From a virus: a stretch of 64,000 nt of DNA. Of the stretch, positions 1 to 55,418 are shown piece after piece. The number at the start of each line of letters is the position of its first letter. The first letter of the stretch is position 1. The translations under genes were made by a program, and so were the position numbers. Below the pieces are notes generated by a model that saw only the letters and a list, made by a program, of their open reading frames with translations, had not been told where the DNA came from and ran no database searches. The stretch lies in the IMG/VR virus record IMGVR_UViG_3300027797_000016, positions 32,001 through 96,000 of that record. One strand, written 5' to 3'.

Positions 1-263
1 TCTCCTCCACCAGTTCTATTATGGAGAATACCAGTTCCTAAATCTTTTCTACCAAAGACAGCAATCATATAGATTTCGTGCTTGAATGCTTCTTCTTCAG
101 TAAGATTTTGTTTTAGGAATATGATACGATTTTTATCTTTAGGAACATATATTCCTTTTTGATGTTTTTCATATAATCTGTTTCCTCCACCTTTACCAAC
201 ATAATAAGGAGTTCTGTTCTCACGCAAATATGCATAAGTATAAAATCTTTTAGGATTTACCAT
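1..263 (-). CDS. GIY-YIG free-standing homing endonuclease, 5' part (runs off window)
   Basis: Manual translation MVNPKRFYTYAYLRENRTPYYVGKGGGNR...EEEAFKHEIYMIAVFGRKDLGTGILHNRT; closely similar to 13053-13724. Confidence 0.85.
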   Translation of the reverse strand, partial: MVNPKRFYTYAYLRENRTPYYVGKGGGNRLYEKHQKGIYVPKDKNRIIFLKQNLTEEEAFKHEIYMIAVFGRKDLGTGILHNRTGGG

Positions 264-365
264 TTCTACTCTTAAACTGACTGCATTATTATTTATATTA
301 AAAAGGAGTAGATTTCTCTACTCCCACCTTACAGATTGCAGTCAGTTAAGGCATCATTATTTAGT
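264..365 (-). promoter_or_regulatory. HEG leader cassette A: TAAATA, antisense segment, terminator, TATAAATA, leader
   Basis: Minus strand CTTAACTGACTGCA complementary to leader TGCAGTCAGTTTAAG; hairpin GGAGTAGA-GAAA-TCTACTCC-TTTTT. Confidence 0.75.
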
Positions 366-3098: not shown

Positions 3099-3172
3099 CT
3101 GTGTGTATGAGTGTATTATAATGCATCCAAGTCACCACCGGGTCTTTCGTGTGCCTCTTTCATAAGTGTCTC
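3099..3172 (-). promoter_or_regulatory. repeated early promoter element
   Basis: GACACTT...GGCAC...TATAATACACTCATACAC. Confidence 0.7.
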
Positions 3173-3394
3173 CGTTCTCTTGAGGAACTCATTACCTTGT
3201 GCTTCAATCAAATCGGCAAGGTTATTCAAATCTTCTACTGGAATACTGTCCTTCATACCATACTTACGGGCAAAGGCATAGATTGCTGATTTTAATGCGA
3301 GAGATTGTAAATGTTCCATAGAAATTGGACCTCCGTGTGGAAGACCAGCACAAGTATCGTTGTAGTATTCGTTATATCGATCCAACAAAAGCAT
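3116..3394 (-). CDS. hypothetical protein
   Basis: ORF between two promoter elements. Confidence 0.6.
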   Translation of the reverse strand: MLLLDRYNEYYNDTCAGLPHGGPISMEHLQSLALKSAIYAFARKYGMKDSIPVEDLNNLADLIEAQGNEFLKRTETLMKEAHERPGGDLDAL

Positions 3395-3414
3395 TTTCTT
3401 TCATCAAGATAAAT

Positions 3415-3474
3415 CAATTATACAACAAAAGGCACCTAAAATCAAGTGCCCTTGTGCCAGTTCTTCAAGCGTCC
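3415..3474 (-). promoter_or_regulatory. repeated early promoter element, TTGATT-N17-TATAAT with GGCAC/GTGCC hairpin
   Basis: read directly from sequence. Confidence 0.75.
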
Positions 3475-4254
3475 TTATGATATTCTAACTCTTTTGGAAG
3501 TATCTATTCCCCGTGCCCTTTGGTATTTTGCGAGATTACCAGCGTTTGTAATAAATCCAGTTTCTGTACACATCCATCTATGAGAATTTGCTTTTTTGCT
3601 ATTAATACTTCGTTCCTCAAAAGTAAGTGAATGAACTCCTATACCATCTTCATAACATTTTTTTCCTATTTCTCTTCTCTCTTCAATTGTTAAAGAATGT
3701 ATTCCTACACCATTTTCATAATTTTTTATTCCTATTTCTCTCAATTGTTCAGTAGTAAAGGAATGAACTCCTACACCATCTTCATAACATTTTTTTCCTA
3801 TTTCTCTTTTCTCTTCAATTGTTAAAGAATGTATTCCCTTCCCATCTTCATAACTTTTTTGTCCTATTTTTTTGCTTAATTCACTTCTTTCTTCTTGTGT
3901 TAAAGAAAAACAAGCATTTTTATTTTTATAAAGATTTTTTCCATTTTTTCTTCTTGTATCTAACGAAAAATTTCCACTACAACTTTCATTTAAGCACCAC
4001 TTATCAACATTATAAAATGGTTTTATTAATTGCCCCTCAATTTTTTGTGCGTGTTTCCAACCTTCATCAGTATAATCAAAAAGTTGTAATGTTTGTTTCT
4101 TTGGAGTATAAAGTTCCCAACACCACTTATGAGTTTTAGGAGAACCCACATAGTACTCACCAAACTTTTTCTCCTTATGAACTCCATAATAATAATACAA
4201 AACTTCCTCAAAGGTAATTTTATATGTGTATATTCTTGGACTTTGTGAAGTCAT
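3475..4254 (-). CDS. putative GIY-YIG-like free-standing endonuclease with 22-aa tandem repeats
   Basis: IYTYKIT...YYYGVH...YxGS N-terminus; SLTxEERREIGKKCYEDGxGxH repeats; HEG-type leader cassette. Confidence 0.7.
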   Translation of the reverse strand: MTSQSPRIYTYKITFEEVLYYYYGVHKEKKFGEYYVGSPKTHKWCWELYTPKKQTLQLFDYTDEGWKHAQKIEGQLIKPFYNVDKWCLNESCSGNFSLDTRRKNGKNLYKNKNACFSLTQEERSELSKKIGQKSYEDGKGIHSLTIEEKREIGKKCYEDGVGVHSFTTEQLREIGIKNYENGVGIHSLTIEERREIGKKCYEDGIGVHSLTFEERSINSKKANSHRWMCTETGFITNAGNLAKYQRARGIDTSKRVRIS

Positions 4255-4360
4255 AGTTCTGCTTTATGGTGTGTCGTATTACTATTTATACAAGAAAAGG
4301 TGCCCGAAAGCACCTAATCTCCGCTTCTGGTTACGACACACATAAGCATCTTTATTTATG
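4255..4360 (-). promoter_or_regulatory. HEG leader cassette B
   Basis: GCTTATGTGTGTCGTA vs leader TACGACACACCATAAAGC; AGGTGCT-TTCG-GGCACCT-TTT hairpin; TAAATA and TATAAATA. Confidence 0.75.
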
Positions 4361-4718
4361 AGTAATTGTAATGTAAATGTGTTTCCCAAGTAAAGAATGG
4401 TTGGTCACGACGAGCAATCATTTCTACAATATAATCCGGAACCAGTTTACCATACTTTTCCATAAATTCATCTTCTGTTGGTTGTTCCAATCCTTGCATA
4501 TAATAATCAGCACCTTCACCAACAAACTTCTCAAAATAACAAAGGTCGTGGTCTTTATCACCAATCGGTAGATAGTTACGGCAAATCTTCAACCAATAAA
4601 ACCTACCTTCCCCAGTCGCAACATAATCAATAGCAAAGAACCTGTAAAATGGTCTTTTATTTTCTGCTTCTCTTTCGGCAGCAATATCAAGCATTTCATC
4701 AAGTGTAAGGTCAGTCAT
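4356..4718 (-). CDS. hypothetical protein
   Basis: MTD start with GGAGG RBS, ATGA overlap. Confidence 0.7.
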   Translation of the reverse strand: MTDLTLDEMLDIAAEREAENKRPFYRFFAIDYVATGEGRFYWLKICRNYLPIGDKDHDLCYFEKFVGEGADYYMQGLEQPTEDEFMEKYGKLVPDYIVEMIARRDQPFFTWETHLHYNYS

Positions 4719-4966
4719 AATGCCTCCAATTCATCAGCAAGTTTAAGAATGTCTTTTACATTTACAACACCAATTCCGTGGTCTCCATCTACACTAAAGT
4801 TCCAGTATGAAAGTTCTGTTACTAATGTTCTCAATACGGCAGCAAACTCATAATGTGTTTTTTTAACCATAGGGTCTCTACCCTCACGAATAAGTTTCCC
4901 AAGAGTGGGAGAACCTTCGGCAACATTTCGTGCTGCTGCTATAATTTTTTGTGCTGTTTCAGTCAT
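4715..4966 (-). CDS. MTERA...ELEAL family paralogue
   Basis: shared helical pattern and junction sequence. Confidence 0.7.
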   Translation of the reverse strand: MTETAQKIIAAARNVAEGSPTLGKLIREGRDPMVKKTHYEFAAVLRTLVTELSYWNFSVDGDHGIGVVNVKDILKLADELEAL

Positions 4967-5270
4967 TCAGTTTCTCCGCAAGTTCTTCTGTGGTGTATTT
5001 TTCTCCATCAAAATTGAAAAAGGTTCTATCTTTTCCAAGAACTTGATGTTCGTAATAAGTTTTTCCAGAGACTTGTGGAAACTCACCATTCACTTTTTCT
5101 TTTATATAGTTGATGTCTCCAATATAGTCGTCACAATCAAGACTACCCGTAAATTGTTTTGGATGATTGTTCATAAACTTCACAGTTGCTTCTACCAAAC
5201 TCATATCAGGTTTTGTGGATACTAACTGAAATCCAAAGCGGGCAAGTAGTTTGTTGAATAGGTCAATCAT
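4959..5270 (-). CDS. hypothetical protein
   Basis: coupled array. Confidence 0.65.
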   Translation of the reverse strand: MIDLFNKLLARFGFQLVSTKPDMSLVEATVKFMNNHPKQFTGSLDCDDYIGDINYIKEKVNGEFPQVSGKTYYEHQVLGKDRTFFNFDGEKYTTEELAEKLND

Positions 5271-5499
5271 TTTCCCCGACCTTCATTTTAGTAATAACAT
5301 AATGAAATTGAGGTTTGCCTTCCTCATCCAAAATATCCTCTCCAGGACACATATAAAAGATGATTTTAGCACCACTCGCAAGTTGTTCTTCAATACCTTC
5401 CATCGTTCTATATGTTCCAGTTCTCATATATTCTGGAAGTGAATTGAATGCGTCCTCAAGGATTTTTATTTGTTCTTGTGTAAGGTTTCTTTCAGTCAT
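5263..5499 (-). CDS. hypothetical protein
   Basis: MTE start, TAATG overlap. Confidence 0.65.
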   Translation of the reverse strand: MTERNLTQEQIKILEDAFNSLPEYMRTGTYRTMEGIEEQLASGAKIIFYMCPGEDILDEEGKPQFHYVITKMKVGEND

Positions 5500-5711
5500 T
5501 AGAGTTTCTCCAGTTCATCTCTCAATTTAGCAAGTTCTTTTACATCAATAATAGAATAATATGAATCTTGTGGATTTGGATATTGTGTAAGTCGAATTAT
5601 AATTTCTGTGATACTTTGGCAAAGTGCTTCTTTCATATCATCTGTTGGTTCTTGTCTAAGTCCTCCACAAAACTCATCCCAAACTAATTGTGCTCTTTTG
5701 AGGTCAGTCAT
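5499..5711 (-). CDS. MTERA...ELEAL family paralogue
   Basis: EPTDDMKEAL shared with 17736-17945. Confidence 0.7.
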   Translation of the reverse strand: MTDLKRAQLVWDEFCGGLRQEPTDDMKEALCQSITEIIIRLTQYPNPQDSYYSIIDVKELAKLRDELEKL

Positions 5712-5917
5712 TTTTCTAACCTTTCAGTAATATTTTCAAAAGAACTATAATCATAAGAAGTTGGTTGTCCCATTCTCAATTTCCCATCAGTATAAGAATG
5801 TTTATGAATTACCATCTTCCCCCCAAGTCCAACGAAGTCAATCAGTATTCTATCACATTCATAGAATTCTTTGAGATATTGTGATACTTTTACATAATCT
5901 ATGGGTTTAGCAGTCAT
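5708..5917 (-). CDS. hypothetical protein
   Basis: coupled array. Confidence 0.6.
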   Translation of the reverse strand: MTAKPIDYVKVSQYLKEFYECDRILIDFVGLGGKMVIHKHSYTDGKLRMGQPTSYDYSSFENITERLEK

Positions 5918-6045
5918 TTTTCTGTTTTTCCATAAGTTCTTTCAATTTTTGTTTAGCATAATCCGTGAGTTCTCTTTTTGACTTTCTCAACTCGTCAATT
6001 TCACTTTGAGATAGAAGGAACCCGTCTGGGATATTCCCGTATTCT

Positions 6046-6240
6046 TCACTCATCTCTTATATCCTTGAACCATTGGGCGAATTTAATCCATTCTTTATCA
6101 TTAAATGCTTCTGAACGATTGGCAGCACTGTAATCTTGGTTCCCATTTTCAGCACAAAATTTATGAAATGCGTGTTTAATCTCACACATCATAAGGTATC
6201 GGTGCATATTAACCATTTCGCATATTTGGGCATCAGTCAT
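6046..6240 (-). CDS. hypothetical protein
   Basis: MTD start, ATGA overlap. Confidence 0.6.
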   Translation of the reverse strand: MTDAQICEMVNMHRYLMMCEIKHAFHKFCAENGNQDYSAANRSEAFNDKEWIKFAQWFKDIRDE

Positions 6241-6419
6241 ACTTCCCACGCATAAGATTTCAGGAGTTCGTTGTCTCTTTCAAGTGTCTCAATTTTATCA
6301 TACAAATCGTCAATAATTTCAATCAAAGCACAATAGTCAATACTTTCAATATCAGCACCATTTTCCATATCGGCATAGGTGTAATAAGACAATTGCTGTT
6401 TTAGGTTGCGTTCAGTCAT
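6237..6419 (-). CDS. hypothetical protein
   Basis: MTE start, ATGA overlap. Confidence 0.6.
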   Translation of the reverse strand: MTERNLKQQLSYYTYADMENGADIESIDYCALIEIIDDLYDKIETLERDNELLKSYAWEV

Positions 6420-6607
6420 TTGTTTTTTTGTTTCTCAAAGTATTCAGTAAGTCCTTCAACTGCTCCAATAGAAAAGGCAATCCAACCTGGAGACAATACC
6501 CAAATCCAACTCCAATCAATAGTGTGAGTTAGTTTAGCACAAATAAAAAGAAAGAGCAAACTTTCAAAAATGCCGATTTTGAGTTTGCCGATTTTGATTG
6601 GGTTCAT
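6416..6607 (-). CDS. small membrane protein
   Basis: KLTxxIDWSWxWVLSPxW motif common in small phage membrane proteins. Confidence 0.7.
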   Translation of the reverse strand: MNPIKIGKLKIGIFESLLFLFICAKLTHTIDWSWIWVLSPGWIAFSIGAVEGLTEYFEKQKNK

Positions 6608-6608
6608 T

Positions 6609-6827
6609 TCAGTTGTCCTCCTTCAAACGAATATTGCCTTCAGTATCACCACACATAGAATAGAAAGCATCTTCAGCAATAGAACGCAAGAATGTATCAT
6701 AGTCATTTTGTGTGGGTTCCCCTTCTTGTCCGGATGTTTCCTCTTCCCACATTTTCAAGAAATCATCTACGGAAAGTGTGAATTCACGGGGAATGTATGC
6801 GACTTTGGGAATGATGTGATTAGTCAT
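6609..6827 (-). CDS. hypothetical protein
   Basis: follows TATAATACACTCATACAC half element at 6835-6855. Confidence 0.65.
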   Translation of the reverse strand: MTNHIIPKVAYIPREFTLSVDDFLKMWEEETSGQEGEPTQNDYDTFLRSIAEDAFYSMCGDTEGNIRLKEDN

Positions 6828-6995
6828 AATGTGTTTGTGTATGAGTGTATTATACAGGATTTCCGTCAATAAACATAGGGTGATTTGGATAAGAACTCCT
6901 AACCATCATCACCCTAATCATAAGAGAACCATAACTCCCAGATTGTTTCATAGGAGTTCCCTTTCTGGTGTGGTTCCAAGATAGAACAGACATAA

Positions 6996-7250
6996 TCAAT
7001 CTCCAAGACTACCAGACCTTACACTATCCACACCAGATAACCACCCATCATTATAACCATTTTTACCACCATCTTCCCATCCATCATCATAACCAACACC
7101 ATATGCTTTATCAGCAACCGCAAGAGCAAACTTTACAGCAACCTCACGAAAGGCATTATTCATAGCACCAGTCATAACACCAGCACCAAGAGTATTCATT
7201 CCAAACTGGGTTCCATCACCCCAGAGTTCAATAAGTTCTTGTTCAGTCAT
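6996..7250 (-). CDS. hypothetical protein with GxxxG repeats
   Basis: GYDDGWEDG...GYNDGW. Confidence 0.6.
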   Translation of the reverse strand: MTEQELIELWGDGTQFGMNTLGAGVMTGAMNNAFREVAVKFALAVADKAYGVGYDDGWEDGGKNGYNDGWLSGVDSVRSGSLGD

Positions 7251-7251
7251 C

Positions 7252-7330
7252 AGGTGTTTGTGTGTATGAGACTATTATAAGGCATCCAGAGGCACCCAGA
7301 GCATCCCCTGTGCCAGTTCTTCAAGTGTCC
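7252..7330 (-). promoter_or_regulatory. repeated early promoter element
   Basis: GGACACTTGAAGAACTGGCAC...GATGCCTTATAAT. Confidence 0.75.
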
Positions 7331-7462
7331 TCACCCAAGTTCTTATAAATCGCATCCATCCATATCTTATCAAAATATTTCCTGTCTTCATCAGTAATCA
7401 TATTTGCTCTCATATACTCTTCAAGTGTGATGTTATTATCATCCAAGTATTTTTGGAGTTCT

Positions 7463-7747
7463 TCAAGGTTTATAGACATAAACCTCAAAGGTTATTTTAT
7501 TCATATGGTCTCCAAATTCCATATTCATACTTACTACCTGTGCTTTTCCTGTTTGGATTTGTCCTGCTACTTGTTGAAAAGAAGTTTTCAAATCATCAAG
7601 GTCATAAGATTTGAGTATTGGAGGTTTTGATTTCTTCAGTTCATCTGCAAATGTTTCTTCACCCTCATAATCTTCTATTCTTGGAAATTTTGGTTTCTCT
7701 TTCTTTCCGTAAAGTTCCTCATATTTTTGTAGTAAAGGGTTCATCAT
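7463..7747 (-). CDS. hypothetical protein, paralogue of 11928-12176
   Basis: NPLxxKY...SFQQVAxQxQTxxAQVxSM...IxFEVY. Confidence 0.7.
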   Translation of the reverse strand: MMNPLLQKYEELYGKKEKPKFPRIEDYEGEETFADELKKSKPPILKSYDLDDLKTSFQQVAGQIQTGKAQVVSMNMEFGDHMNKITFEVYVYKP

Positions 7748-7950
7748 TCTAAAATAATATCACAACCATCGTTTCGTAAGTTCAACGACCACACAGATTT
7801 TACCACATTTGATAGATTATTACCAACACTCATCCACACCTCAAAATCCTCACCATACTCATTTGTATCAGGAAGAACACTCAAGATTTCTTTGAGTTCC
7901 CGAATGGTGAGTGCGTCAGTTGTGAATGGTTGGTTTCTTATATCAGTCAT
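7744..7950 (-). CDS. hypothetical protein
   Basis: coupled array. Confidence 0.6.
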   Translation of the reverse strand: MTDIRNQPFTTDALTIRELKEILSVLPDTNEYGEDFEVWMSVGNNLSNVVKSVWSLNLRNDGCDIILE

Positions 7951-8047
7951 TTCTCACACCGATGTAATGGAATACGAAGAAACTGAAAGAACCTTCCAGT
8001 CCATCCTATCATATCTCCACATTTAGGACAACAATACGATGGGTAGG

Positions 8048-8233
8048 TCATTTCAATCCAATCAGTTTAGCAAAATCAGGAGTGATAGTAAGGTTTTGTT
8101 CTCTTACAAGATTACGAACTTCCTTACGAAGATTTATCCACTTGCTGTAGTAATCTTGTGATGCTTTTTGTGCTCTGTTTTTAGCATCAAAGTCGCACTG
8201 GTGCTCGTAAGTTCTGGTTTCGTAGTATCTCAT
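8048..8233 (-). CDS. hypothetical protein
   Basis: coupled array. Confidence 0.6.
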   Translation of the reverse strand: MRYYETRTYEHQCDFDAKNRAQKASQDYYSKWINLRKEVRNLVREQNLTITPDFAKLIGLK

Positions 8234-8775
8234 TTTTCATCCACCCAGAAAAATCCAAGAAGATTTTTCATACAAAAACGGATTACAAAATTCGGTTTAG
8301 TCGGCATATAATACCTGAAAGACCTACAATTACCGAATGTATAATATCCTTCGTGGTCATTTCCTTGTTTAATTACAAAACTGGAAGTAATATTACTACC
8401 AGTCGCAATAAGGTTAGAATATGTAAGTTTAGGTGGAAATTGTCCGTGTTCCTTCGCATACTCAAAGTTATCAATAATTCTATTGAACTTTGTATCATAC
8501 AAAGTTTCAGCAATATACTTTGACTTATAAAAACTATTCTTTGTTCTCTCAATCAAATCATCAATCTTCTCATCCAATTCTTGCGATATTTCTTCCAGAG
8601 TTTTACAAGGTTCAGGTATATCAAGATAATCTTTGATTACATCAAAATACTCATAATCTTCGGTGAAATAAAAACAACCAAGAATATAAGGAAGAACACT
8701 TTGAGGTGCTCCTTTCAGTTTCTCTGGATTGAGTTTATATCCTGATGGTCCTATTTTTAGTGTTGGTTCAGTCAT
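8230..8775 (-). CDS. hypothetical protein
   Basis: long ORF; C-terminus PNxxxRFxMK weakly like 8974/12315 family. Confidence 0.7.
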   Translation of the reverse strand: MTEPTLKIGPSGYKLNPEKLKGAPQSVLPYILGCFYFTEDYEYFDVIKDYLDIPEPCKTLEEISQELDEKIDDLIERTKNSFYKSKYIAETLYDTKFNRIIDNFEYAKEHGQFPPKLTYSNLIATGSNITSSFVIKQGNDHEGYYTFGNCRSFRYYMPTKPNFVIRFCMKNLLGFFWVDEK

Positions 8776-8776
8776 T

Positions 8777-8977
8777 TCAAATACCTGCGTCAGCATCAAT
8801 AGTGAATTCTGCTTTGTCTGTGATAATCTCTACACTCATATCATTCATAATGTCGGCAATCAAATCCCTTACCCTCTCCCTTGACTTGTGAGTATATACT
8901 CCATTCCAGTTTGATACCATTAGAGAGTGGTTGAAAGTATCAATAATAACTGCAAGTTCGTGTGCTGTGATTTTCAT
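8777..8977 (-). CDS. hypothetical protein
   Basis: coupled array. Confidence 0.6.
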   Translation of the reverse strand: MKITAHELAVIIDTFNHSLMVSNWNGVYTHKSRERVRDLIADIMNDMSVEIITDKAEFTIDADAGI

Positions 8978-9195
8978 TTGTTCTTCACCCAGTTACAATC
9001 AAAAAATACTTTAGACCAGAACCTTACCCAAGCATTAGGAACTTTACCTTCTTGTGGCACCCAAGTCATAGGAGAAAAACTAGCATCACCACCAAACGCA
9101 TAACAAGTCCAGTTAGATAGTTTTGGTTGTGTGATAGTATATGTGTTTGATTTATTGTAATCAGCAGGAAAAGTATATTCAGTATATTCAGTCAT
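8974..9195 (-). CDS. hypothetical protein, paralogue of 12315-12593
   Basis: EGKVPNAWVRF...DCNWVKNK shared. Confidence 0.7.
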   Translation of the reverse strand: MTEYTEYTFPADYNKSNTYTITQPKLSNWTCYAFGGDASFSPMTWVPQEGKVPNAWVRFWSKVFFDCNWVKNK

Positions 9196-9343
9196 CGTAT
9201 TCCAATTTTGAGAGTGCCTTTCAGTTCATTATAAAGTCCATTCAATCCCTGTCTCCTATCATTATCAGTTACATCAAGAATATGATACAATAGTCGTGCC
9301 TGTTCTTCGTCCAGTGTGATTTTGTAGTTCTTTTGAATTTCAA

Positions 9344-9580
9344 TCATTTTGGGCAGTGGAGAAAATATTTGTATTCAGAAAGCATATTATATTGCCATTG
9401 AACTAAATCACAACCTTTGTATTCACTGACAACTGTAAAAGTTCCATGTTTCTCAACTGGTTCTGCAACTGCTTGTGCTTCTGGTTGTTTGAAACTCTCA
9501 AGAATAGCAGGCACCATAAAATACAGACAAGCAAGACAAAATCCAGTAAGTAATCCAAGTGCGTATTGTGGGTATCTCAT
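9344..9580 (-). CDS. membrane-anchored hypothetical protein
   Basis: paralogue of 846-1046. Confidence 0.7.
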   Translation of the reverse strand: MRYPQYALGLLTGFCLACLYFMVPAILESFKQPEAQAVAEPVEKHGTFTVVSEYKGCDLVQWQYNMLSEYKYFLHCPK

Positions 9581-10326
9581 CGTAGTTTCCTCTTGATTTT
9601 ATTGAGACAATCGTTGAAACCTTCTACAGTACACTCAACATAAGCATTTTGAGACCCAGCGGCAGATTGTTCTTTCGGCAACCATTCTTCAATGGCATCC
9701 ACAAGTTCCTGAAGTGATGTTTCTTTCTTGGTGAATGTATCATCCCACCAGTCAGCAATCACATCATAAAGAGTTTGTGGTTTGGTAGATGAAACTACAC
9801 CTTGCTTGACTGCTTCCCTGAATGCTTCTTTCAATCCATCAGCAACTTGCTCTGGTGTTTGAGGTTTCAAACAATCTAATGGGTCTTTATCTGGATTTTC
9901 TTCACACCATTTCTTACTCTCACGAACAGCATCTTTTATTTGTTGTCCTTTCCCATAAGTAAATACCGCCCACCTAAACCAAGCAGCAGGAGAAAGTTCA
10001 TAATAACCATCACTCAAATATCCACTCAACTTTTCACCAAAACGAAGAGCAACAGATTTCCATTCATTATCTTCTTGTTCTTCTTGAACTTTTTCCATTA
10101 CTTCCTTTGCGGTAGAGATTGCGTAAGCAAACTCATATCCTGCTTGGAAACCTTGCCACCTTGTATCATCATACTGGGAGTCAGTTTCTAATTCAGGATA
10201 TTGCCCCCACCAATCTTTGTAGCATTCTTCTACTGGTGATTTTGTTCGTTGCTGTTCTTCAAGTTTTTGTAGTTTCTCTTGGAGAATAGCAATATCCTCT
10301 TTGAGTTGTTGAATAGTTTCAGTCAT
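9577..10326 (-). CDS. mosaic hypothetical protein
   Basis: 249-aa ORF; PQTPxxV segment shared with 12315-12593. Confidence 0.75.
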   Translation of the reverse strand: MTETIQQLKEDIAILQEKLQKLEEQQRTKSPVEECYKDWWGQYPELETDSQYDDTRWQGFQAGYEFAYAISTAKEVMEKVQEEQEDNEWKSVALRFGEKLSGYLSDGYYELSPAAWFRWAVFTYGKGQQIKDAVRESKKWCEENPDKDPLDCLKPQTPEQVADGLKEAFREAVKQGVVSSTKPQTLYDVIADWWDDTFTKKETSLQELVDAIEEWLPKEQSAAGSQNAYVECTVEGFNDCLNKIKRKLR

Positions 10327-10526
10327 TTCAAGTTCTCCCTTGCTTTGCGAGCAGTATCATAAAGTTCCCGAAGTCGTTGCGACCTCTCCTCTCGTTTTTT
10401 GACTTGTTCTGGACTATTATGCCACACACTATCAGTTCCGTGTAAAGGGCAATCTGGATTGAGGTTTTGAGTGTTTGAAGTTTTGGTTCCTATTTGAATG
10501 TAGGAACAGGTGCATTTGGTAGTCAT
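10323..10526 (-). CDS. hypothetical protein (CxC...CPxHG)
   Basis: coupled array. Confidence 0.6.
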   Translation of the reverse strand: MTTKCTCSYIQIGTKTSNTQNLNPDCPLHGTDSVWHNSPEQVKKREERSQRLRELYDTARKARENLK

Positions 10527-10708
10527 ACATCCTCCATATCAAAACTCATATCATATTTTGGTAGTGGTTGTCCTGCTACATTATAGCACCAATCACAAAA
10601 GTTCATACTCTCTACCATATCAACATCCCATCCACAACACTCCACAGCACTATGAAGTGTGGAAAGAAACTCTGGTGTGAGAAGTTCTTTGAGTTCTTGT
10701 TTCGTCAT
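10523..10708 (-). CDS. hypothetical protein
   Basis: coupled array. Confidence 0.6.
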   Translation of the reverse strand: MTKQELKELLTPEFLSTLHSAVECCGWDVDMVESMNFCDWCYNVAGQPLPKYDMSFDMEDV

Positions 10709-10973
10709 CGGTTCATCCAGTCTCTCAAATCAACAATTTCATACCAGTCATACCTATACTTTTGTTTTGATATTTCCTCCCATTTTTCTTTTGCTTCCTC
10801 TTTGGTTTCGTAGCATTCAATCCAATCATCAGTATAGGCAGAAGGATAATAGTTGTCTCCAGCAATCAATAGATAAGGTTTCATCGTTCAGCAACCACAT
10901 CGTTGATAGTGAGCAAAATCACTCAAACTGGTGCTACCATATTCTACAACACCATCAAGTAAGCAAAGGTAGT

Positions 10974-11159
10974 TCATTTCAGTTGCTCCAAGCAAATAGA
11001 ACAGAGACAATCATCAGTTTTAGGAACTCTAAACATAATATGGTTTCCAGAGCAACAATCTCTATCACCACATTTTCTACATTCATCACAAACCCACTCC
11101 TTTTGATTACGACATTTTACGAAATCTTCAAGAGTGTATTGTTGGAGAATAGAAGTCAT
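10974..11159 (-). CDS. Cys-rich small protein, possible Zn binding
   Basis: multiple CxxC. Confidence 0.6.
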   Translation of the reverse strand: MTSILQQYTLEDFVKCRNQKEWVCDECRKCGDRDCCSGNHIMFRVPKTDDCLCSICLEQLK

Positions 11160-11305
11160 TCTAATACATCAGTAAGTTTGTTATACATCCAAGAGATTAT
11201 GAGTGCCTGTCCCCAAGTAAGAGGAAAGAAAGATACAAGTGCCCAACCCATCAATCCCACAAAAATATAAAATCCAATTGTTTCACCAATCTCTTGTTTA
11301 GTCAT
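11156..11305 (-). CDS. small membrane protein
   Basis: hydrophobic segments; ATGA overlap. Confidence 0.55.
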   Translation of the reverse strand: MTKQEIGETIGFYIFVGLMGWALVSFFPLTWGQALIISWMYNKLTDVLE

Positions 11306-11484
11306 TTGAGGTTCCTCATCAATCGTGCGTAAGAATAATTCCAAGTAGAAGGGTCTTCTGGGTCAAAAGGGTTCTTGTATTCTTTTGGTTCATAAGGTTC
11401 TGGTGTATATTGGAAGAATTTAGAAGCAATATAAGAACCAAGACAAGGAAACAGAAAGCAAAGAAGAGCAGATGTAAGGGTCAT
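11302..11484 (-). CDS. hypothetical protein with N-terminal hydrophobic segment
   Basis: first gene after promoter element. Confidence 0.6.
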   Translation of the reverse strand: MTLTSALLCFLFPCLGSYIASKFFQYTPEPYEPKEYKNPFDPEDPSTWNYSYARLMRNLK

Positions 11485-11489
11485 CAGGG

Positions 11490-11565
11490 TTGTTTGTGTA
11501 TGAAACTATTATAAGGCATCAGGGCACCGAGTTCAAGTGCCCTGTGCCGGTTCTTCAAGTGTCCC
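11490..11565 (-). promoter_or_regulatory. repeated early promoter element, TTGAAC-N17-TATAAT
   Basis: CAGGGCAC/GTGCCCTG inverted repeat around the -35. Confidence 0.8.
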
Positions 11566-11935
11566 CAACAGAGTTGAGAGCAAGACCAATTCTACTAATT
11601 TTATTTTCTAAACTATTGTAATACTGATAAACATAATTATCATCAAGATTATCATTTTTTGCTTTCCTCACAAGAGCAAGCAAATCGTTAATCTCATAAT
11701 TACTAAAGGGTTCTACCGTCCATTCACCGATAGATACAACTTTTTTAGTCATCAGGTGTCTTTGTGTGTATGAATGTATTATAAGGCATCTGGTGCCCCT
11801 GTGGAGTGGTGTCTGTGCCAGTTCGTCAAGTGTCCTCTGCTCTTCAAGGATTATTTCAAAAATCATTCTGGTGTAGCTTTCTGTTGCTCCCCAGTGTCTT
11901 GCTAATCTTATAATGTCTTTATGTTTATTAGTCAT
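11555..11935 (-). CDS. hypothetical protein; reading frame crosses a promoter element, internal start at 11752
   Basis: MTNKH... continues in frame through element into MTKKVV... Confidence 0.55.
   Translation of the reverse strand: MTNKHKDIIRLARHWGATESYTRMIFEIILEEQRTLDELAQTPLHRGTRCLIIHSYTQRHLMTKKVVSIGEWTVEPFSNYEINDLLALVRKAKNDNLDDNYVYQYYNSLENKISRIGLALNSVGDT
11753..11835 (-). promoter_or_regulatory. repeated early promoter element
   Basis: GGACACTTGACGAACTGGCAC...GATGCCTTATAATACATTCATACAC. Confidence 0.75.
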
Positions 11936-12176
11936 CCCCATAAACCTCAAAGATAATTTTTGCTCCACCCATTACATCCCTTTCCATACTCATACTCAAC
12001 ACCTGTGCCCTACTAGTTTGGAGTTGTTCTGCTACTTGTTGAAAAGATACTTTCAAGTCATTAGGGTCATAACATTTTGCGAGTTTTCGTAGTTTTGATT
12101 TCTCTACTGGTTTTGGAGGTTCTGGTGGTTTTGGATTATGGATTTCATTATATTTTTCAATTAGTGGATTAGTCAT
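11928..12176 (-). CDS. hypothetical protein, paralogue of 7463-7747
   Basis: shared motifs. Confidence 0.7.
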   Translation of the reverse strand: MTNPLIEKYNEIHNPKPPEPPKPVEKSKLRKLAKCYDPNDLKVSFQQVAEQLQTSRAQVLSMSMERDVMGGAKIIFEVYGDD

Positions 12177-12314
12177 TTTCTTTACAATACCTTTGATATT
12201 CCCAATGATGAACCATTTCTACAAGGTCTTTGGTAACTAAACAATCTTCATTATCTTTAATTTTATCCCAATCAATAGGATTTTTTTCACTCCATTCTTC
12301 GTAGGTTAGTTTAG

Positions 12315-12593
12315 TCATTTGTTCTTCACCCAGTTACAATCTAAAAATACTTTCATAAAAAACCTCACCCAAGCATTAGGAACTTTACCTTCTTCTGGTG
12401 TCCAAGTGATAGAAGAAAATGAGGCATTACCACCAAAAAGGTAGCAGGTATAGTTAGATTGTTTTGGTTGGTGAATAAAAAGATAATCGTTGGGAATTGG
12501 GAATACACCATCTTCCTTTGCTTGTTTCATAGCACCACGAAGTCCAGCATCTACTTCATCTGGTGTTTGTGGCGTTGGTTGATATTCAGTCAT
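12315..12593 (-). CDS. chimeric hypothetical protein
   Basis: N-part like an internal segment of 9577-10326, C-part like 8974-9195. Confidence 0.7.
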   Translation of the reverse strand: MTEYQPTPQTPDEVDAGLRGAMKQAKEDGVFPIPNDYLFIHQPKQSNYTCYLFGGNASFSSITWTPEEGKVPNAWVRFFMKVFLDCNWVKNK

Positions 12594-13056
12594 AAGGAAT
12601 CCATTCAGCAAAACTAAAGATATACGCAAGTCCCCATTCTAATGTATGAGGTGGTAGTTCGTCAATATGATTAAACGCAAGTCGTCTTGCTTCCAAGATG
12701 CGTTCTTTACCTACCGCAAGTAGATTTGCTTTAGAACCTTTGAGAAACTCATTATAATCTGCCTGATTATTCTGTTTCGCACCAGAGATATACAATCGTC
12801 TCATTTCAGTAAAAAGTTCTGCGGTTTCGGGGGCAAATGTAATCACTTCTTCCCCCAAAGGGATTTCCATAGTTTTCATCGCACTCATTGAAAATTTCAT
12901 CGCATCTCTGGTTTCTTCTACTGATAAGGCATCCTCATCCTCATCACGAAACTTATGTTGTATTATACCGTTACTGCACTCAACTAATCTTAAAAGAGCA
13001 ATCTTGTCCTTCTCAGAGTCAGGTAGTGCTTGAAATCTTGCGTCCCAGTCAATCAT
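12586..13056 (-). CDS. hypothetical protein
   Basis: 156-aa ORF, ATGA overlap with HEG stop. Confidence 0.7.
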   Translation of the reverse strand: MIDWDARFQALPDSEKDKIALLRLVECSNGIIQHKFRDEDEDALSVEETRDAMKFSMSAMKTMEIPLGEEVITFAPETAELFTEMRRLYISGAKQNNQADYNEFLKGSKANLLAVGKERILEARRLAFNHIDELPPHTLEWGLAYIFSFAEWIPYD

Positions 13057-13724
13057 TTTCTTCCAAGTCTCCAACCATCACCGGGACATTCTACCATCCT
13101 TTTACAATTTCCGCAACCATCATTCCACCACTTTTTACCTTTTCGTGTCTCACTCATTTTTCTTCTGGTTTCTTTGGAAAGGATTTTACCTTTTCGTGTC
13201 TCACTCATTTTTCTTCTGGTTTCTTCTGAAACAGGTCTGCCTTTAAGACCTTCAATTATTTTATCTATATGCTCTTTTGAGAGAGTTTTACCAATTTGTG
13301 ACTCACTCATTTTTCTTCTGGTTTCTTCCGAATGAATTTTACCATAGTTATGATTTTTTTCCCCTCTCCTTGCTTCACTCATTTTTTTTCTAGTTTCTTC
13401 TGAAGGGGTTCTTTCTCTCATTTTTTTTCTGGTTTCTTCACTAAAAACATAACCAGAAGCACCATCACCACCATCTGTAAGGTTGTGAAGAATACCAGTT
13501 CCCAAATCTTTCCTACCAAACACAGCAATCATATAGATTTCGTGTCTAAATGCTTCTTCTTCTGTTAAGTTTTGTTTGAGGAATATAATTCTTGATTTAT
13601 CTTTGGGTGGGTTATTTCGTCTGTTTGTAGAATAAATCCTATCTCCAGTACCTTTACCAATATAATAAGGTGTCTTATCTTCACGCAAATATGCGTAAGT
13701 GTAAAACCTATTAGGATTTACCAT
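13053..13724 (-). CDS. GIY-YIG homing endonuclease with NUMOD3-type repeats
   Basis: FYTYAY...YYIGKG...R...E...N motifs; repeated SEETRRKMSE. Confidence 0.9.
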   Translation of the reverse strand: MVNPNRFYTYAYLREDKTPYYIGKGTGDRIYSTNRRNNPPKDKSRIIFLKQNLTEEEAFRHEIYMIAVFGRKDLGTGILHNLTDGGDGASGYVFSEETRKKMRERTPSEETRKKMSEARRGEKNHNYGKIHSEETRRKMSESQIGKTLSKEHIDKIIEGLKGRPVSEETRRKMSETRKGKILSKETRRKMSETRKGKKWWNDGCGNCKRMVECPGDGWRLGRK

Positions 13725-13833
13725 AGTTCTGCTTCTAAATTGTGTTCGCAATACTATTTATACAAGAAAAGGTGCCCGAAGACACCCTTCCCACTCTTAT
13801 GGATGCGAACACATTAGAGCACCAGTATTTATC
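13725..13833 (-). promoter_or_regulatory. HEG leader cassette C
   Basis: GCTCTAATGTGTTCGCA vs leader TGCGAACACAATTTAGAAGC; GGTGTC-TTCG-GGCACC-TTTT; TAAATA and TATAAATA. Confidence 0.75.
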
Positions 13834-14006
13834 TGTTTAGCACAACTCCACCCTATAACAAGCAAGAAAGCATGATTTGATGTGCTAATTTGTCCCGCAA
13901 AAAATTAATTCTTTCTTCATCATACTGCTGAAAGTTTCCTTTCTTCTCCACTTTCTTATAATAATGTAGAGCATTTATAATTATACCATAATCTTCTATT
14001 GTAATA

Positions 14007-16705: not shown

Positions 16706-16785
16706 CAGGTCTTTGTGTATGAATGTATTATACGACAAAGGGCACTCGGTTTCAAGTGCCCTTGTGACGGTTTCTCAAGTGTCCT
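16706..16785 (-). promoter_or_regulatory. repeated early promoter element, TTGAAA-N17-TATAAT
   Basis: AAGGGCAC/GTGCCCTT inverted repeat; near-identical to 21092-21170. Confidence 0.85.
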
Positions 16786-17945: not shown

Positions 17946-18023
17946 CAGGTTTCTGTGTATGAGAGTATTATAAGGCATCTGGTGCCCCTGTGGAGGGCTC
18001 TTGTGACGGTTCTTCAAGTGTCC
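17946..18023 (-). promoter_or_regulatory. repeated early promoter element
   Basis: core CTCCACAGGGGCACCAGATGCCTTATAAT identical to the 11753-11835 copy. Confidence 0.8.
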
Positions 18024-32811: not shown

Positions 32812-34622
32812 TACTTAATATTCTCCTTCAGGTTATTTATCTCTTTCTGTTGCTTCTTCACGACCTCAATCAGTAATCCAATCAAACCATTATAATTCAC
32901 AGTCTTACTATCAGTACCATTTACAAGTTCTGGAAGAACTTTCTCCACTTCTTGAGCAATCACACCCATAGAACTTCTACCACTTTCTTTCCAATCAAAG
33001 GATACTCCATTAATCTGTAGAACCTTATCTATTGGATTTATAATTGGTTTAATGTTCTCTTTGAGGTTAATGTCCGATGCAGAGTTAAAATCAGTAGATG
33101 TGGTAACACCAGAGACTAATACATCTCCAATGACGTGAAGTTTACTTGTTGGATTTGTGGTTCCAATACCAAGATTACCAGAGACATAAGCACCACCAGT
33201 GACCTGAAGTCTTTGTAATGATGTTCCTGTTGATGTTGCAGCACCAATAAAGACGGGTCCATTTACAAAGGTAGAAATTCCTGTAATTTGTAAGTCAGTA
33301 AATGTATTGGGTGCATTTGAGATTGCACTCTCAATTGTTGCAGTCGTAACACTATCAAGAGAAGCAATATTTTGTAACTGTCTTCCTGAACTAATGACTT
33401 GAGTAGATGCAATATTTAAAGAACCAACTGTACCAATACCACTATAAGAAACATTGGTTCCTGATAGGTTAGTAATAGTTCCATTAGTACTGTTAAAGGT
33501 TGTAATAGTCCCTGCAGTACCAGTTAAATTGGTAATAGTTCCATTAGTACTGTTAAAGGTTGTAATAGTCCCTGCAGTACCAGTTAGATTGGTAATAGTT
33601 CCTGTGGTACTGTTAAGAGTTGTAATCGTACCAATACCAGTAATCCTTCCATTTCTTGCTGTAAACTCATCAAATACTAAATCATCAGCAACATATAAGT
33701 CTCCACCAACATATAAATCTCCACCAGTAGTTGTAATACCACCAGAACTTGCAAGTGTACTAATACCAGCAACAGTAATACTACCAAATAAAGTAGTTGG
33801 TCCACTTATGTTTGATGGACCAGGAAAGACTGTAAGTGCATCAACAACAGCAGTAGTTACAACATCAATACCTTGTAAGAAAGTAGAAACTCCAGATACT
33901 CTTAATGAACCAGTACTTGTAAGACCAGATACTACTAGTGAATTTGTTGTTGTAACTCCAGAAACTACTAATGAACCAGTTGTTGTAACTCCAGTATTAT
34001 TGATTGTAGTACTTCTTACATTAGTGATTGTAGAAATACCAGTATAGTTTAGATTAGTTCCAGAGATATTAGTTACAGAACCATTTGTATAAGTTAATGT
34101 AGTTCCACTGATTGTTGTTACAGTACTAACACCTAAAGAGTTTATATTTCCTGTTAGATTACCAACAAAACCACCAGAAGAAGTAGTAACTCCAGAAACT
34201 AATACATTTCCACGAACATCAAGAGTTACTAAAGGATTTGTGGTTCCAATACCAACAAGACCAGTATTTGTAGTAGAAACAATCGTTCCACCAGTTCCTA
34301 CATTTAAAATTCTAACAGTTGCAATACCAGTTATATTTCCGTTTCTTGCTGTAAACTCATCAAATACTAAATCATCAGCAACATATAAGTCTCCACCAAC
34401 ATATAAATCACTTACAGTAGTTGTGACCCCAGTAAATGTAGATACACCAGTTACAATTAATGTTTGTAGTTTTGTATTTCCAACTACCTCAAACTTTGTA
34501 CTTGGATTTGCAGTACCAATACCAATATTTGGTAGTGCTGTGGTTGCAATACCAACATTTTTATTGGCGTCATTAACTCTAACAAATGAAGCAAATTGTG
34601 AAAGTTCTCTATTATTAGCCAT
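32811..34622 (-). CDS. tail fibre with C-terminal S74-type intramolecular chaperone
   Basis: GIGTTNP repeats; SDINLKENI...GVIAQEVEKVLPELV...VNYNGLIGLLIE. Confidence 0.85.
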   Translation of the reverse strand: MANNRELSQFASFVRVNDANKNVGIATTALPNIGIGTANPSTKFEVVGNTKLQTLIVTGVSTFTGVTTTVSDLYVGGDLYVADDLVFDEFTARNGNITGIATVRILNVGTGGTIVSTTNTGLVGIGTTNPLVTLDVRGNVLVSGVTTSSGGFVGNLTGNINSLGVSTVTTISGTTLTYTNGSVTNISGTNLNYTGISTITNVRSTTINNTGVTTTGSLVVSGVTTTNSLVVSGLTSTGSLRVSGVSTFLQGIDVVTTAVVDALTVFPGPSNISGPTTLFGSITVAGISTLASSGGITTTGGDLYVGGDLYVADDLVFDEFTARNGRITGIGTITTLNSTTGTITNLTGTAGTITTFNSTNGTITNLTGTAGTITTFNSTNGTITNLSGTNVSYSGIGTVGSLNIASTQVISSGRQLQNIASLDSVTTATIESAISNAPNTFTDLQITGISTFVNGPVFIGAATSTGTSLQRLQVTGGAYVSGNLGIGTTNPTSKLHVIGDVLVSGVTTSTDFNSASDINLKENIKPIINPIDKVLQINGVSFDWKESGRSSMGVIAQEVEKVLPELVNGTDSKTVNYNGLIGLLIEVVKKQQKEINNLKENIK

Positions 34623-34661
34623 TTTTCATTTGTTAGATGTTACTTCTTACTATAGTATTTA

Positions 34662-52561: not shown

Positions 52562-52666
52562 ACTGCTCTTAAAACTGACTAGCAATATTATTTATACTAA
52601 AAAGGAGGAGATTTTAGTCTCCTCCAACCTCAAAGATGCTAGTCAGTTAAGGCATTTTTATTTATT
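52562..52666 (-). promoter_or_regulatory. HEG leader cassette D
   Basis: CTTAACTGACTAGCA vs leader TGCTAGTCAGTTTTAAG; GGAGGAGA...TCTCCTCC-TTTTT; TAAATA and TATAAATA. Confidence 0.75.
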
Positions 52667-53308: not shown

Positions 53309-53842
53309 TTATTTACTAACACGATTATATGATTTTCCATAAAATGGATTATTTTCTCCAGTAATATCTCTTCCACAATCTTTCCAATATTTTTTGGCAG
53401 CTTTTCTCATTTTATTTTTAGTTTCCTCACTATGCGGTTTTCTTTTTCTATTCTTAGAAGAAAGTTTCATTTTTTCTATTGTTTCTGGTGAATGTTTTTT
53501 ACCATAAAATGGATTTTTACTGCCAGGTTTTGAAATTTTTTTCTTAGTATCTTCATTATGCGAATATCCAGATATTCCATCACCACCGTTAGTCATATTA
53601 CGAAGAATACCAGTTCTCAAATCTTTTCTACCAAAAATAGAAATCATATAAACTTCGTGTTTATTTGCCTCTTCTTCTGTAATATTTTTCTTTAAGAAGA
53701 TAATTTTATTATTGTCTTTTGGTTTTAAGTTTGTTTTATTTTGTCTAATATGACTTTTATAAACTCTCCTTCCTCTACCTTTACCAATATAATAGGGAGT
53801 TCCGTCTTTACGCAAATATGCGTAAGTGTAATATTCGTTCAT
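53309..53842 (-). CDS. GIY-YIG homing endonuclease with NUMOD3-type repeats
   Basis: YYTYAYLR...YYIGKG...NMTNGGDG; HSEETKNKM. Confidence 0.88.
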   Translation of the reverse strand: MNEYYTYAYLRKDGTPYYIGKGRGRRVYKSHIRQNKTNLKPKDNNKIIFLKKNITEEEANKHEVYMISIFGRKDLRTGILRNMTNGGDGISGYSHNEDTKKKISKPGSKNPFYGKKHSPETIEKMKLSSKNRKRKPHSEETKNKMRKAAKKYWKDCGRDITGENNPFYGKSYNRVSK

Positions 53843-53940
53843 TGTGTCTTGGTGTTGACTATTAATATTTATAACATAAAAGTGGGACTTATACAACTAT
53901 ATCCACCAAGACACAAGTTGCTGCCCATTTTACTTAATTA
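53843..53940 (-). promoter_or_regulatory. HEG leader cassette E (variant)
   Basis: TTGTGTCTTGGTG perfectly complementary to CACCAAGACACAA ending at the A of the ATG; TATAAATA at 53866-53873. Confidence 0.65.
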
Positions 53941-54275: not shown

Positions 54276-54347
54276 AGCCCCCGATCTGATTTGAACAGAC
54301 GGCCGACGGTTTACAAAACCGTTGCTCTACCACTGAGCTACAAGGGC
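54276..54347 (-). tRNA. trnT: tRNA-Thr(UGU)
   Basis: GCCCTTGTAGCTCAGTGGTAGAGCAACGGTTTTGTAAACCGT...GTTCAAATC...GGGGCT cloverleaf. Confidence 0.95.
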
Positions 54348-54658: not shown

Positions 54659-55387
54659 TTATTTATTGATCCATTTGCGAATAGAATTATCACTAACACC
54701 ATATTTTTTACCTACAGCAAGATAAGAACTTTCTTTTACTTCTTGTAATAATTGTTCTTTAGAAGGTCTTTCAACTTTTCTTTGAGATTTTGAATAACAA
54801 CTATTACAAAGACCCGTTTTGCAGTTTGTTTTTAATTCAACCTCACACGAAGAACATTTATGAATTTTTTTGGTTCGTATTATTTGAATTTTATTTTTTA
54901 TTGTTTGTGAGTTTTTATTTTTCTTATTTTTACCACGATATGTTGGTGTTTTAGCGTGGCAGTTGGGACATAATATTTTTAGATTTTCTAACATATTGTT
55001 ATAATGGTCTCCATCAATATGATCTAATTCTAAAGGTATTGGTTCTCCTAACCATTCACTCAACTCACAACATTCGCATCTATGATTCTTTAATCCCTCT
55101 ATAATTAATCTTTTTCGCAATTTGTTAGAATTGTACTCATAATTCTTAACAAGTATTTCGCTTAATGGAGTTGTATTAAACTTGTGAGTTTTCCCCTTTA
55201 GATGTCCTTGACCTGTAAAATGTGAAGTGTCTATTCCATAAAGTTTTTCAAATTTTTTAAATACTCTATAGTTTCCACCTCTTGGAGATAATCCAAGTTT
55301 TGTAAGTGCTTGTGCTATAGAAAAACTTTCTTCTACTGCTTTTTTAAAGTCTTCTATAGAATATGAATGTTTCATACTGATAAACAT
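54659..55387 (-). CDS. free-standing HNH endonuclease with C-terminal HTH (alternative start 55375)
   Basis: CECC...LELDHIDGDHYNNxLENLxILCPNCH; AVGKKYGVSDNSIRKW. Confidence 0.9.
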   Translation of the reverse strand: MFISMKHSYSIEDFKKAVEESFSIAQALTKLGLSPRGGNYRVFKKFEKLYGIDTSHFTGQGHLKGKTHKFNTTPLSEILVKNYEYNSNKLRKRLIIEGLKNHRCECCELSEWLGEPIPLELDHIDGDHYNNMLENLKILCPNCHAKTPTYRGKNKKNKNSQTIKNKIQIIRTKKIHKCSSCEVELKTNCKTGLCNSCYSKSQRKVERPSKEQLLQEVKESSYLAVGKKYGVSDNSIRKWINK

Positions 55388-55418
55388 ATTGTATAGTTAT
55401 TTATATAAGTTTATCAGT
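55376..55418 (-). promoter_or_regulatory. start-sequestering hairpin with late promoter TATAAATA in its loop
   Basis: ACTGATAAAC...GTTTATCAGT-ATG, 10-bp inverted repeat. Confidence 0.7.

Follow-up and report, generated by a model that had tools for sequence, protein, structure and literature searches.

A terminator and a late promoter enclosed by covarying RNA arms ahead of homing-endonuclease-type genes of a freshwater T4-like cyanophage

We report a cassette from a freshwater T4-like cyanophage in which two complementary arms, both encoded on the coding strand, enclose an intrinsic terminator and a T4-type late promoter ahead of genes of the homing-endonuclease type. The arms covary, and they are probably the two strands of one long-range hairpin in the nuclease leader, which would function as a late-only lock. 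The window, by which we mean the whole analysed stretch of 64,000 nucleotides, was taken from a 105-kb IMG/VR virus record that is 42% complete, and its genes are found on the minus strand. The nearest cultured relative is the Synechococcus phage S-SRM01, a freshwater T4-like cyanomyovirus of the Kyanoviridae, with approximately 83% DNA identity in patches.

Two cassettes form the core of this analysis, B (4252-4360) and C (13722-13833), both on the minus strand. The initial annotation had stated that they share a terminator/promoter backbone and a start context while their paired segments differ in step, and this description was confirmed. A shared 29-nt terminator/promoter core occurs in exactly two copies (4280-4308 and 13752-13780; shuffled sequences lead to an expectation of 0), and a 12-nt start context is common to B (4252-4263) and C (13722-13733), all of them at the places that had been given and on the minus strand. 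The 10-nt cores of the arms (4332-4341 with 4269-4278 in B, 13804-13813 with 13741-13750 in C) differ between the cassettes, and complementarity is kept in each pair. Each arm pair occurs once, its partner 10-mers being 53 nt apart on the same strand, and the reverse complement of each 10-mer is expected only 0.05-0.08 times in the whole 64 kb.

Read from 4360 to 4252, cassette B consists of a distal late-promoter-like motif of the NATAAATA type (4353..4360), which overlaps the stop codon (4356-4358) of an upstream ORF (4356-4718, 120 aa), a 17-nt segment representing the 5′ arm (4332..4348 in the fold), a 16-nt spacer, an intrinsic terminator found by terminator scan and fold (4291..4315, hairpin 4298-4315 plus T-run), the late promoter TATAAATA (4283..4290), the 3′ arm (4260..4278), five bases and the ATG. 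The 3′ arm is the reverse complement of the 5′ segment with two single-base bulges; it constitutes the leader of the nuclease mRNA and reaches a purine-rich SD-like tract at −12 to −7. Cassette C has the same order of parts and precedes a NUMOD3 homing endonuclease gene. Its distal motif of the NATAAATA type (13826..13833) is located 20 nt past the upstream stop codon (13853-13855), followed by the 5′ arm (13804..13821), the terminator hairpin with its T-run (13764..13792, folded as a 12-bp stem with a 4-nt loop), the exact late promoter motif (13755..13762) and the 3′ arm (13730..13750), the arms again as delimited by the fold. In both cassettes the exact TATAAATA is positioned 28-30 nt ahead of the ATG.

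Folding of the RNA extends the arms of B and C with single-base bulges to a stem of 17-19 bp, with a computed energy of −21 to −24 kcal/mol. The z-scores of the folds are −4.0 for B and −4.5 for C, with a range of −4.0 to −4.8 across the cassettes, and 0 of 200 shuffled sequences were as stable. The stem encloses the terminator and the late promoter TATAAATA in cassettes A, B, C and D. In B and C its 3′ strand takes in the leader including the SD-like tract and ends 6 nt before the AUG, the start codon is unpaired in the fold, and the SD-like tract is weak. The terminator hairpin is almost invariant among cassettes, with alternation of G.U and G-C at two pairs. Two further candidates were rejected: a leader ORF from the terminator stem of B to the nuclease ATG is not conserved in C, and an antitermination switch conflicts with the order of the parts, as transcription reaches the 3′ arm only beyond the terminator, so that the arm can have no influence on termination.

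The initial annotation had further proposed that compensatory changes between B and C reflect a selected RNA-RNA pairing, and covariation in a larger alignment was both looked for and found. A first sample came from scanning IMG/VR for exact matches to the loop core (60 loci). Together with S-SRM01, which carries five such cassettes, and the window this resulted in 48 unique homologous cassettes chosen by their loop sequence and not by their arms. The long-range stem is present in 47 of these 48, the exception being cassette L075. Changes on both sides occur in 11 of the 15 long-range pairs. The number of compensated cells is 123 compared to 39.7 ± 9.8 in shuffled alignments (0 out of 500 shuffles reach it), and sliding the partner by 1-3 columns lowers it to 8-31; the slid versions also reach a covariation score of at most 0.094, compared to 0.361 for the actual pairs. 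MAFFT and RNAalifold applied to the 48 cassettes recovered the terminator hairpin only, with the arms of variable length being misaligned, and the long-range pairs were then derived from the column-pair frequencies of the same alignment, so that the percentage of paired sequences is inflated. The counts of double changes, the shuffles, the slid controls and the per-sequence duplexes do not depend on the alignment-derived structure.

The per-sequence analyses and a second, protein-anchored sample provide independent checks on the pairing. This second search started from the gene B protein, was blind to the cassette and yielded 66 distinct upstream regions. An exact TATAAATA 23-30 nt before the ATG was found in 65 out of 66, together with arms of −20 to −30 kcal/mol and a loop hairpin of −9 to −19 kcal/mol, and many of the arm sequences were new. 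Pooling both samples gave 102 unique cassettes with 81 distinct arm pairs. Cognate arms reach a duplex energy of −23.2 ± 2.3 kcal/mol compared to −11.6 ± 4.3 kcal/mol for non-cognate arms, and 98% of the cognate but only 5% of the non-cognate duplexes are found at −20 kcal/mol or below. For the two cassettes of the window the prediction gave −21.0 (B) and −23.0 (C) kcal/mol for the cognate pairs and −14.8 and −10.6 kcal/mol for the crosses. The stems of the 102 cassettes contain 90 G.U pairs, and not one A.C occurs among 18 single mismatches. This bias is an argument for selection on the RNA of the coding strand; it speaks against a cruciform in the DNA, a site bound by a protein or an RNA transcribed from the opposite strand.

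The exception mentioned above, L075:310-414 (IMGVR_UViG_3300046804_001454), combines a 5′ arm of a B-like family with a 3′ arm of another family and precedes an HNH/NUMOD-type gene. It appears to have arisen by recombination across the conserved loop and may represent a natural “unlocked” mutant.

One claim of the initial annotation was not borne out, namely that the arms represent orthogonal RNA-target pairs, one per nuclease. Arms are shared among nuclease families. The same arm pair occurs before different nuclease types, with C-type arms found ahead of three N-terminal families, and conversely the B-type nuclease family is found behind dozens of arm pairs; one library contig even couples a B-type cassette to a C-type nuclease gene. 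There is also no excess of orthogonality within genomes: non-cognate duplexes within one genome (66 pairs) have −11.4 ± 4.9 kcal/mol, 9% of them at −20 or below, and thus resemble random non-cognate pairs (−11.6 ± 4.3 kcal/mol, 5% at −20 or below), which is why selected orthogonality was rejected. The arms are a sequence-free clamp that drifts and recombines, and not addresses matched to nucleases. Both partners are found on the same strand, 53 nt apart around the late promoter, which makes a T4-like hairpin in cis the simplest reading, ahead of an RNA with a separate target.

The two genes behind B and C had been called only distantly related, a wording that is if anything generous, since BLASTP reports no significant similarity between the proteins (E 0.54). 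Gene C (13053..13724, minus strand, 223 aa) is a NUMOD3 homing endonuclease (Pfam NUMOD3, 9e-28); its protein also matches the homing endonuclease groups phrog_314 and phrog_655, and TIGR01453 at 4e-9, which is below the cut-off. Gene B (3475..4254, minus strand, 259 aa) is a putative free-standing homing endonuclease. Sequence and profile searches with its protein gave no match in Pfam, PHROGs, NCBIfam or the PDB, and its AlphaFold models are of low confidence (pLDDT 44.8 and 45.1). Its neighbours in the ESM-Atlas carry NUMOD3 or GIY-YIG, and it belongs to a family of at least 1663 unannotated metagenomic proteins with a conserved N-terminal domain of approximately 105 aa and a C-terminal part with a variable number of repeats of approximately 22 aa. 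Residues Y9/Y11, YYG at 22-24, E73 and N89 are invariant in this family, and their spacing may resemble that of GIY-YIG. The N-terminal domain may be an unrecognised or very divergent catalytic domain of a homing endonuclease. The assignment as a putative nuclease is based on the position of the gene, the NUMOD3-like repeats, the ESM-Atlas neighbours and a presence/absence polymorphism. The polymorphism is found in a contig of a freshwater RNA library, where 3377-4362 (cassette B, gene B and its downstream terminator) is replaced by 27 other bases that join the end of the upstream ORF directly to the start of the next gene. For a mobile homing endonuclease an allele free of the nuclease is to be expected, and this variant looks like one; cassette B is inside the mobile unit. 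A freshwater metatranscriptome library contains 93% of the words of 4001-14000, in the form of contigs which are possibly derived from DNA and carry no information on starts, ends or strand.

The arrangement is not limited to B and C. All six arm-enclosed TATAAATA sites of the window (A-F, all on the minus strand) are located ahead of genes of the homing-endonuclease type. Cassette A (263..350; arms 337-347 and 275-285, terminator 304-325, TATAAATA 290-297) precedes a C-like nuclease gene (3-263) that is cut by the window edge. Cassette D (52562..52666; arms 52637-52648 and 52573-52584, TATAAATA 52589-52596) is followed by a homing endonuclease gene (51773-52561), and its arms equal those of A plus one inserted base pair. 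Cassettes E and F are plain hairpins in T4 style whose 3′ arm abuts or includes the ATG. The simple hairpin E (53842..53916; 13-bp arms 53904-53916 and 53842-53854, TATAAATA 53866-53873) has neither terminator nor distal motif, and its 3′ arm abuts the ATG of the nuclease gene 53312-53842. The short hairpin F (55376..55418; arms 55405-55418 and 55376-55389, TATAAATA 55398-55405) is found upstream of an HNH endonuclease gene (54662-55387).

The NATAAATA motif is the late promoter of T4-like cyanophages and is read by the gp55 sigma factor which all of them encode (PMC2984593); based on this literature, g55 is presumably present in this phage. The motif occurs 27 times on the coding strand compared to 2 times on the other, and it is positioned 10-42 nt ahead of baseplate-hub, tail-fibre and tail genes. 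At these structural-gene late promoters the motif is not enclosed, the arm duplex having only −1 to −10 kcal/mol compared to −21 to −24 kcal/mol at the nuclease genes. Late transcription in T4 starts at approximately the sixth base after the promoter motif. With this spacing the late start in B is predicted at about 4277, which is the second base of the 3′ arm, so that a late transcript would leave out the 5′ arm.

The nuclease genes are embedded in a cluster of small, contiguous ORFs of the same strand. Within 2-18 kb of the window eight minus-strand copies of an early-type promoter element were found by their sequence (2329-2349, 3103-3123, 6837-6857, 7262-7282, 11496-11516, 11766-11786, 16715-16735 and 17955-17975). 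With such elements upstream on the same strand, the nucleases would be positioned within early transcription units, and early transcription would arrive from upstream, with the cassette terminator standing between these promoters and the gene. The element itself consists of a TATAAT box and a fixed downstream block; in many copies a conserved block and a GC-rich hairpin come before the box. Groups of small ORFs are separated by these elements, which are similar to the PeSL cassettes known from T4-type coliphages. In RNA libraries, contigs fuse several of the early-element sites and skip the intervening genes (for example 3120 to 3451, 3120 to 7305 and 7329 to 12585), which fits a shuffling of modules at those repeats.

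Taken together, this suggests a double lock, in which we infer both the start and end points of the transcripts and the effect on translation. Transcripts of the early cluster arriving from upstream would mostly stop at the cassette terminator. A read-through RNA would carry both arms, and the resulting stem of 17-19 bp would bury the leader up to the SD-like tract so that ribosomes could not load. Late in infection an RNA polymerase of the gp55 type would start approximately 6 nt after TATAAATA, at the first bases of the 3′ arm, and the mRNA lacking the 5′ arm would have an open leader, the nuclease thus being made late only. The terminator would therefore halt most early transcription, the hairpin would silence the read-through, and the internal late promoter would provide a translatable mRNA. 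Complementarity would matter for such a lock and sequence would not, so that the arms could drift and recombine freely as long as they stay paired; a constraint on complementarity only accounts for the compensatory differences between B and C.

Over 47 cassettes the computed unpaired probability of the initiation region is 0.32 in the read-through RNA compared to 0.59 in the predicted late RNA, and for positions −13..−6 of cassette B it is 0-0.3 compared to 0.9-1.0. An occlusion of the ribosome site by the stem in B and C is plausible in terms of predicted structure. One must keep in mind that the stem ends 6 nt before an unpaired AUG and that the SD-like tract is weak in both cassettes, which makes the strength of the block uncertain. 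In addition, read-through RNA should be scarce given the terminator in the loop, and this weakens the need for a lock in cis.

A further point is that the cis hairpin on its own leaves unexplained the conserved NATAAATA-like motif found at promoter-like spacing before the 5′ arm. This distal motif could be a second late promoter, driving an RNA of approximately 56 nt (5′ arm, spacer and terminator) that acts in trans, a possibility which we regard as rather unlikely. The 5′ end of such a small RNA would be antisense to the whole late nuclease leader and might limit or delay translation as an RNA “antidote” travelling with the nuclease. The same antisense segment would also be present at the 3′ end of early transcripts terminated within the cassette, whether or not there is a distal promoter, and the action of a small RNA and the cis hairpin may coexist. 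In favor of it, TAAATA is found 4-6 nt before the base of the stem in 93 of 93 distinct cassettes, preceded by A in 83%, by C in 17% and never by G or T, and the motif is kept where arms, spacer and terminator have all diverged. From the distal motif a start is predicted at the second base of the 5′ arm, just as the proximal promoter is related to the 3′ arm. Folds of the putative RNAs (56-57 nt; cassettes B, C and D) give two hairpins, the loop of the first one containing the arm core, their cofolding with the late leader results in a net gain of −12.8 and −14.6 kcal/mol, and the terminator-less cassettes E and F are also without the distal motif. Against it, E and F show that the cis hairpin alone is used in the same genome. 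Moreover, 17-23% of cassettes carry a distal motif that does not follow the consensus (C at position 2), whereas 65 of 66 proximal motifs are exact. The distal motif also doubles as the upstream stop codon in approximately 60%, which could alone conserve the TAA; it is nevertheless present in the approximately 40% of cassettes where it is not the stop codon, C included. The cassettes with a terminator may moreover share one ancestor, in which case the spacing is possibly inherited and not selected, and there is no sign of selected orthogonality. In the MFE folds of these short RNAs (B, C and D) the base of the 5′ arm also pairs locally with the spacer; this first hairpin of the putative RNA is not claimed here, as a crude test separated cognate from non-cognate partners only weakly (4.69 compared to 4.08 bp). 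The wider view that each cassette is a self-contained two-promoter module, providing every nuclease gene with a two-hairpin RNA perfectly antisense at its 5′ end to the leader from the proximal late promoter and swappable between families, we likewise consider doubtful.

The inverted repeat could also work on a different level. It appears very unlikely to us that the stem of 17-19 bp is in the main a cleavage site for RNase III or another nuclease at which the upstream and the nuclease mRNAs are parted, or a stabiliser for the 3′ end of the upstream mRNA, instead of a block to translation. Such a role would leave unexplained that the late promoter is always placed in the loop, that the 3′ strand always ends at the SD-like tract and that the element is confined to nuclease genes. 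In length the stem would suffice for cleavage by a double-strand-specific enzyme, and it flanks the terminator, but it bulges at conserved places beside the SD-like tract; a precedent for processing is given by RNase E near T4 segB and segG and Aeh1 mobE (PMC2988022). Still more improbable, to the point of being nearly negligible, is a function of the repeat as DNA, be it as a cruciform, as a recombination or insertion site or as an operator such as a binding site of the nuclease itself. The cassettes do mark the borders of mobile units, as seen in the variant without 3377-4362, the recombinant L075 has arms of two families, and an operator that covers the late promoter of I-TevI is bound by this nuclease itself (PMC2988022). 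The 90 G.U pairs and 0 A.C fit only an RNA of the coding strand, however, whereas DNA or the other strand would lead to both equally or to neither, and hypervariable arms with 81 different pairs do not fit a site bound by a protein.

The preferred reading, a hairpin in cis that is bypassed by late transcription, has well-studied counterparts. Control by a hairpin and a late promoter is established for I-TevI and gene e of T4, and has been demonstrated or inferred also for I-TevII, I-TevIII, segB and Aeh1 mobE as well as for the genes soc and 49 (PMC2988022, PMC3014915). In those systems, and by its predicted geometry also in ours, TATAAATA is placed such that late transcripts would lack the 5′ strand, and the targets are free-standing homing endonucleases of the GIY-YIG or HNH type, here putatively, within early units. 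The cassette differs in its origin from a freshwater T4-like cyanophage lineage, in a loop of approximately 50 nt that includes a complete intrinsic terminator, in a 3′ strand that covers the leader to −7 and not the AUG, and in the second late-promoter-like motif ahead of the 5′ strand. Furthermore, the T4 hairpins are individual and unrelated, whereas the cyanophage cassette is one homologous portable unit found with at least eight N-terminal types of nucleases and more than 80 arm variants.

PeSL elements are likewise short conserved terminator/promoter modules that are repeated in hyperplastic regions and tied to module shuffling, but they contain a sigma-70 early promoter and no flanking arms (PMC2839356, PMC4122927). 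The cyanophage cassette has a late promoter, a covarying arm clamp and a link to nuclease genes; the promoter of A-D is of the late type TATAAATA and comes without a −35/−10 pair. The cassette is thus analogous to PeSL and not a member. Small RNAs directed at a 5′-UTR are also known from type I toxin-antitoxin pairs such as IstR-1/tisB, OhsC/shoB and Orz/zor. Similar features are present here, namely a promoter-like motif that is degenerate in 17-23% of cassettes, a terminator and a complementarity of 17-19 nt, and an active distal promoter would yield a short RNA, equipped with a promoter and terminator of its own, that is complementary over approximately 18-20 nt to the leader of a harmful neighbour. 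In contrast to those pairs the RNA would be in tandem on the same strand and not divergent, and the “toxin” is a DNA endonuclease and not a small membrane peptide. In the T4-like cyanophage S-PM2 a homing endonuclease gene is also linked to an RNA, CfrI (Millard et al. 2010, as cited in PMC2984593). CfrI is a true antisense transcript of approximately 225 nt from the opposite strand that spans the nuclease gene and psbA, while both partners of our cassette are on the coding strand.

The mechanism is already known for T4 and close relatives and is not categorically new. A blastn search against 50,697 phage records found no cassette outside S-SRM01, the text of the paper describing S-SRM01 does not contain it, and Rfam gave no match for 4150-4450 on either strand at E ≤ 1. 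With respect to the literature and databases consulted, what is new is the freshwater cyanophage lineage, the composite build with terminator and late promoter in a clamp, which represents a late-promoter counterpart of PeSL, the portability over at least eight N-terminal types of nucleases, the abundance, the depth of the covariation and the possible second promoter.

Homing endonucleases must stay nearly silent to spare the phage, and T4 achieves this gene by gene. In the cyanophage the control takes the form of one plug-and-play cassette of terminator, late promoter and sequence-free clamp that moves between unrelated nuclease genes. It is common in freshwater cyanophage metagenomes, with 60 exact-core loci and an occurrence before 65 of 66 B-type nuclease homologues. 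The more than 80 natural arm variants stand in for a compensatory-mutation experiment and support the T4 model in a lineage far from T4, and the cassette can be used to flag nuclease genes that are missed by protein family models, such as the gene B family with its 1663 members. If the distal promoter were active, a new class of phage small RNAs would be at hand, and in the two-promoter case each mobile nuclease would carry a co-evolving RNA antidote or rheostat as a same-strand tandem pair that is “type I-like”.

We further report minor observations on the surroundings of the cassettes. ARAGORN predicts a tRNA-Thr at 54276-54347, and the segment 55419-55470 just upstream of cassette F ends like the 3′ half of a tRNA, without being called by ARAGORN. 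A nuclease gene beside tRNA genes recalls segB of T4. Finally, a perfect 13-nt inverted repeat (34578-34590 and 34625-34637) brackets the start codon (34622) of a baseplate/tail-fibre gene of 603 aa; both of its arms are located downstream of the NATAAATA motif of that gene (34656-34663), an arrangement unlike that of the nuclease cassettes.
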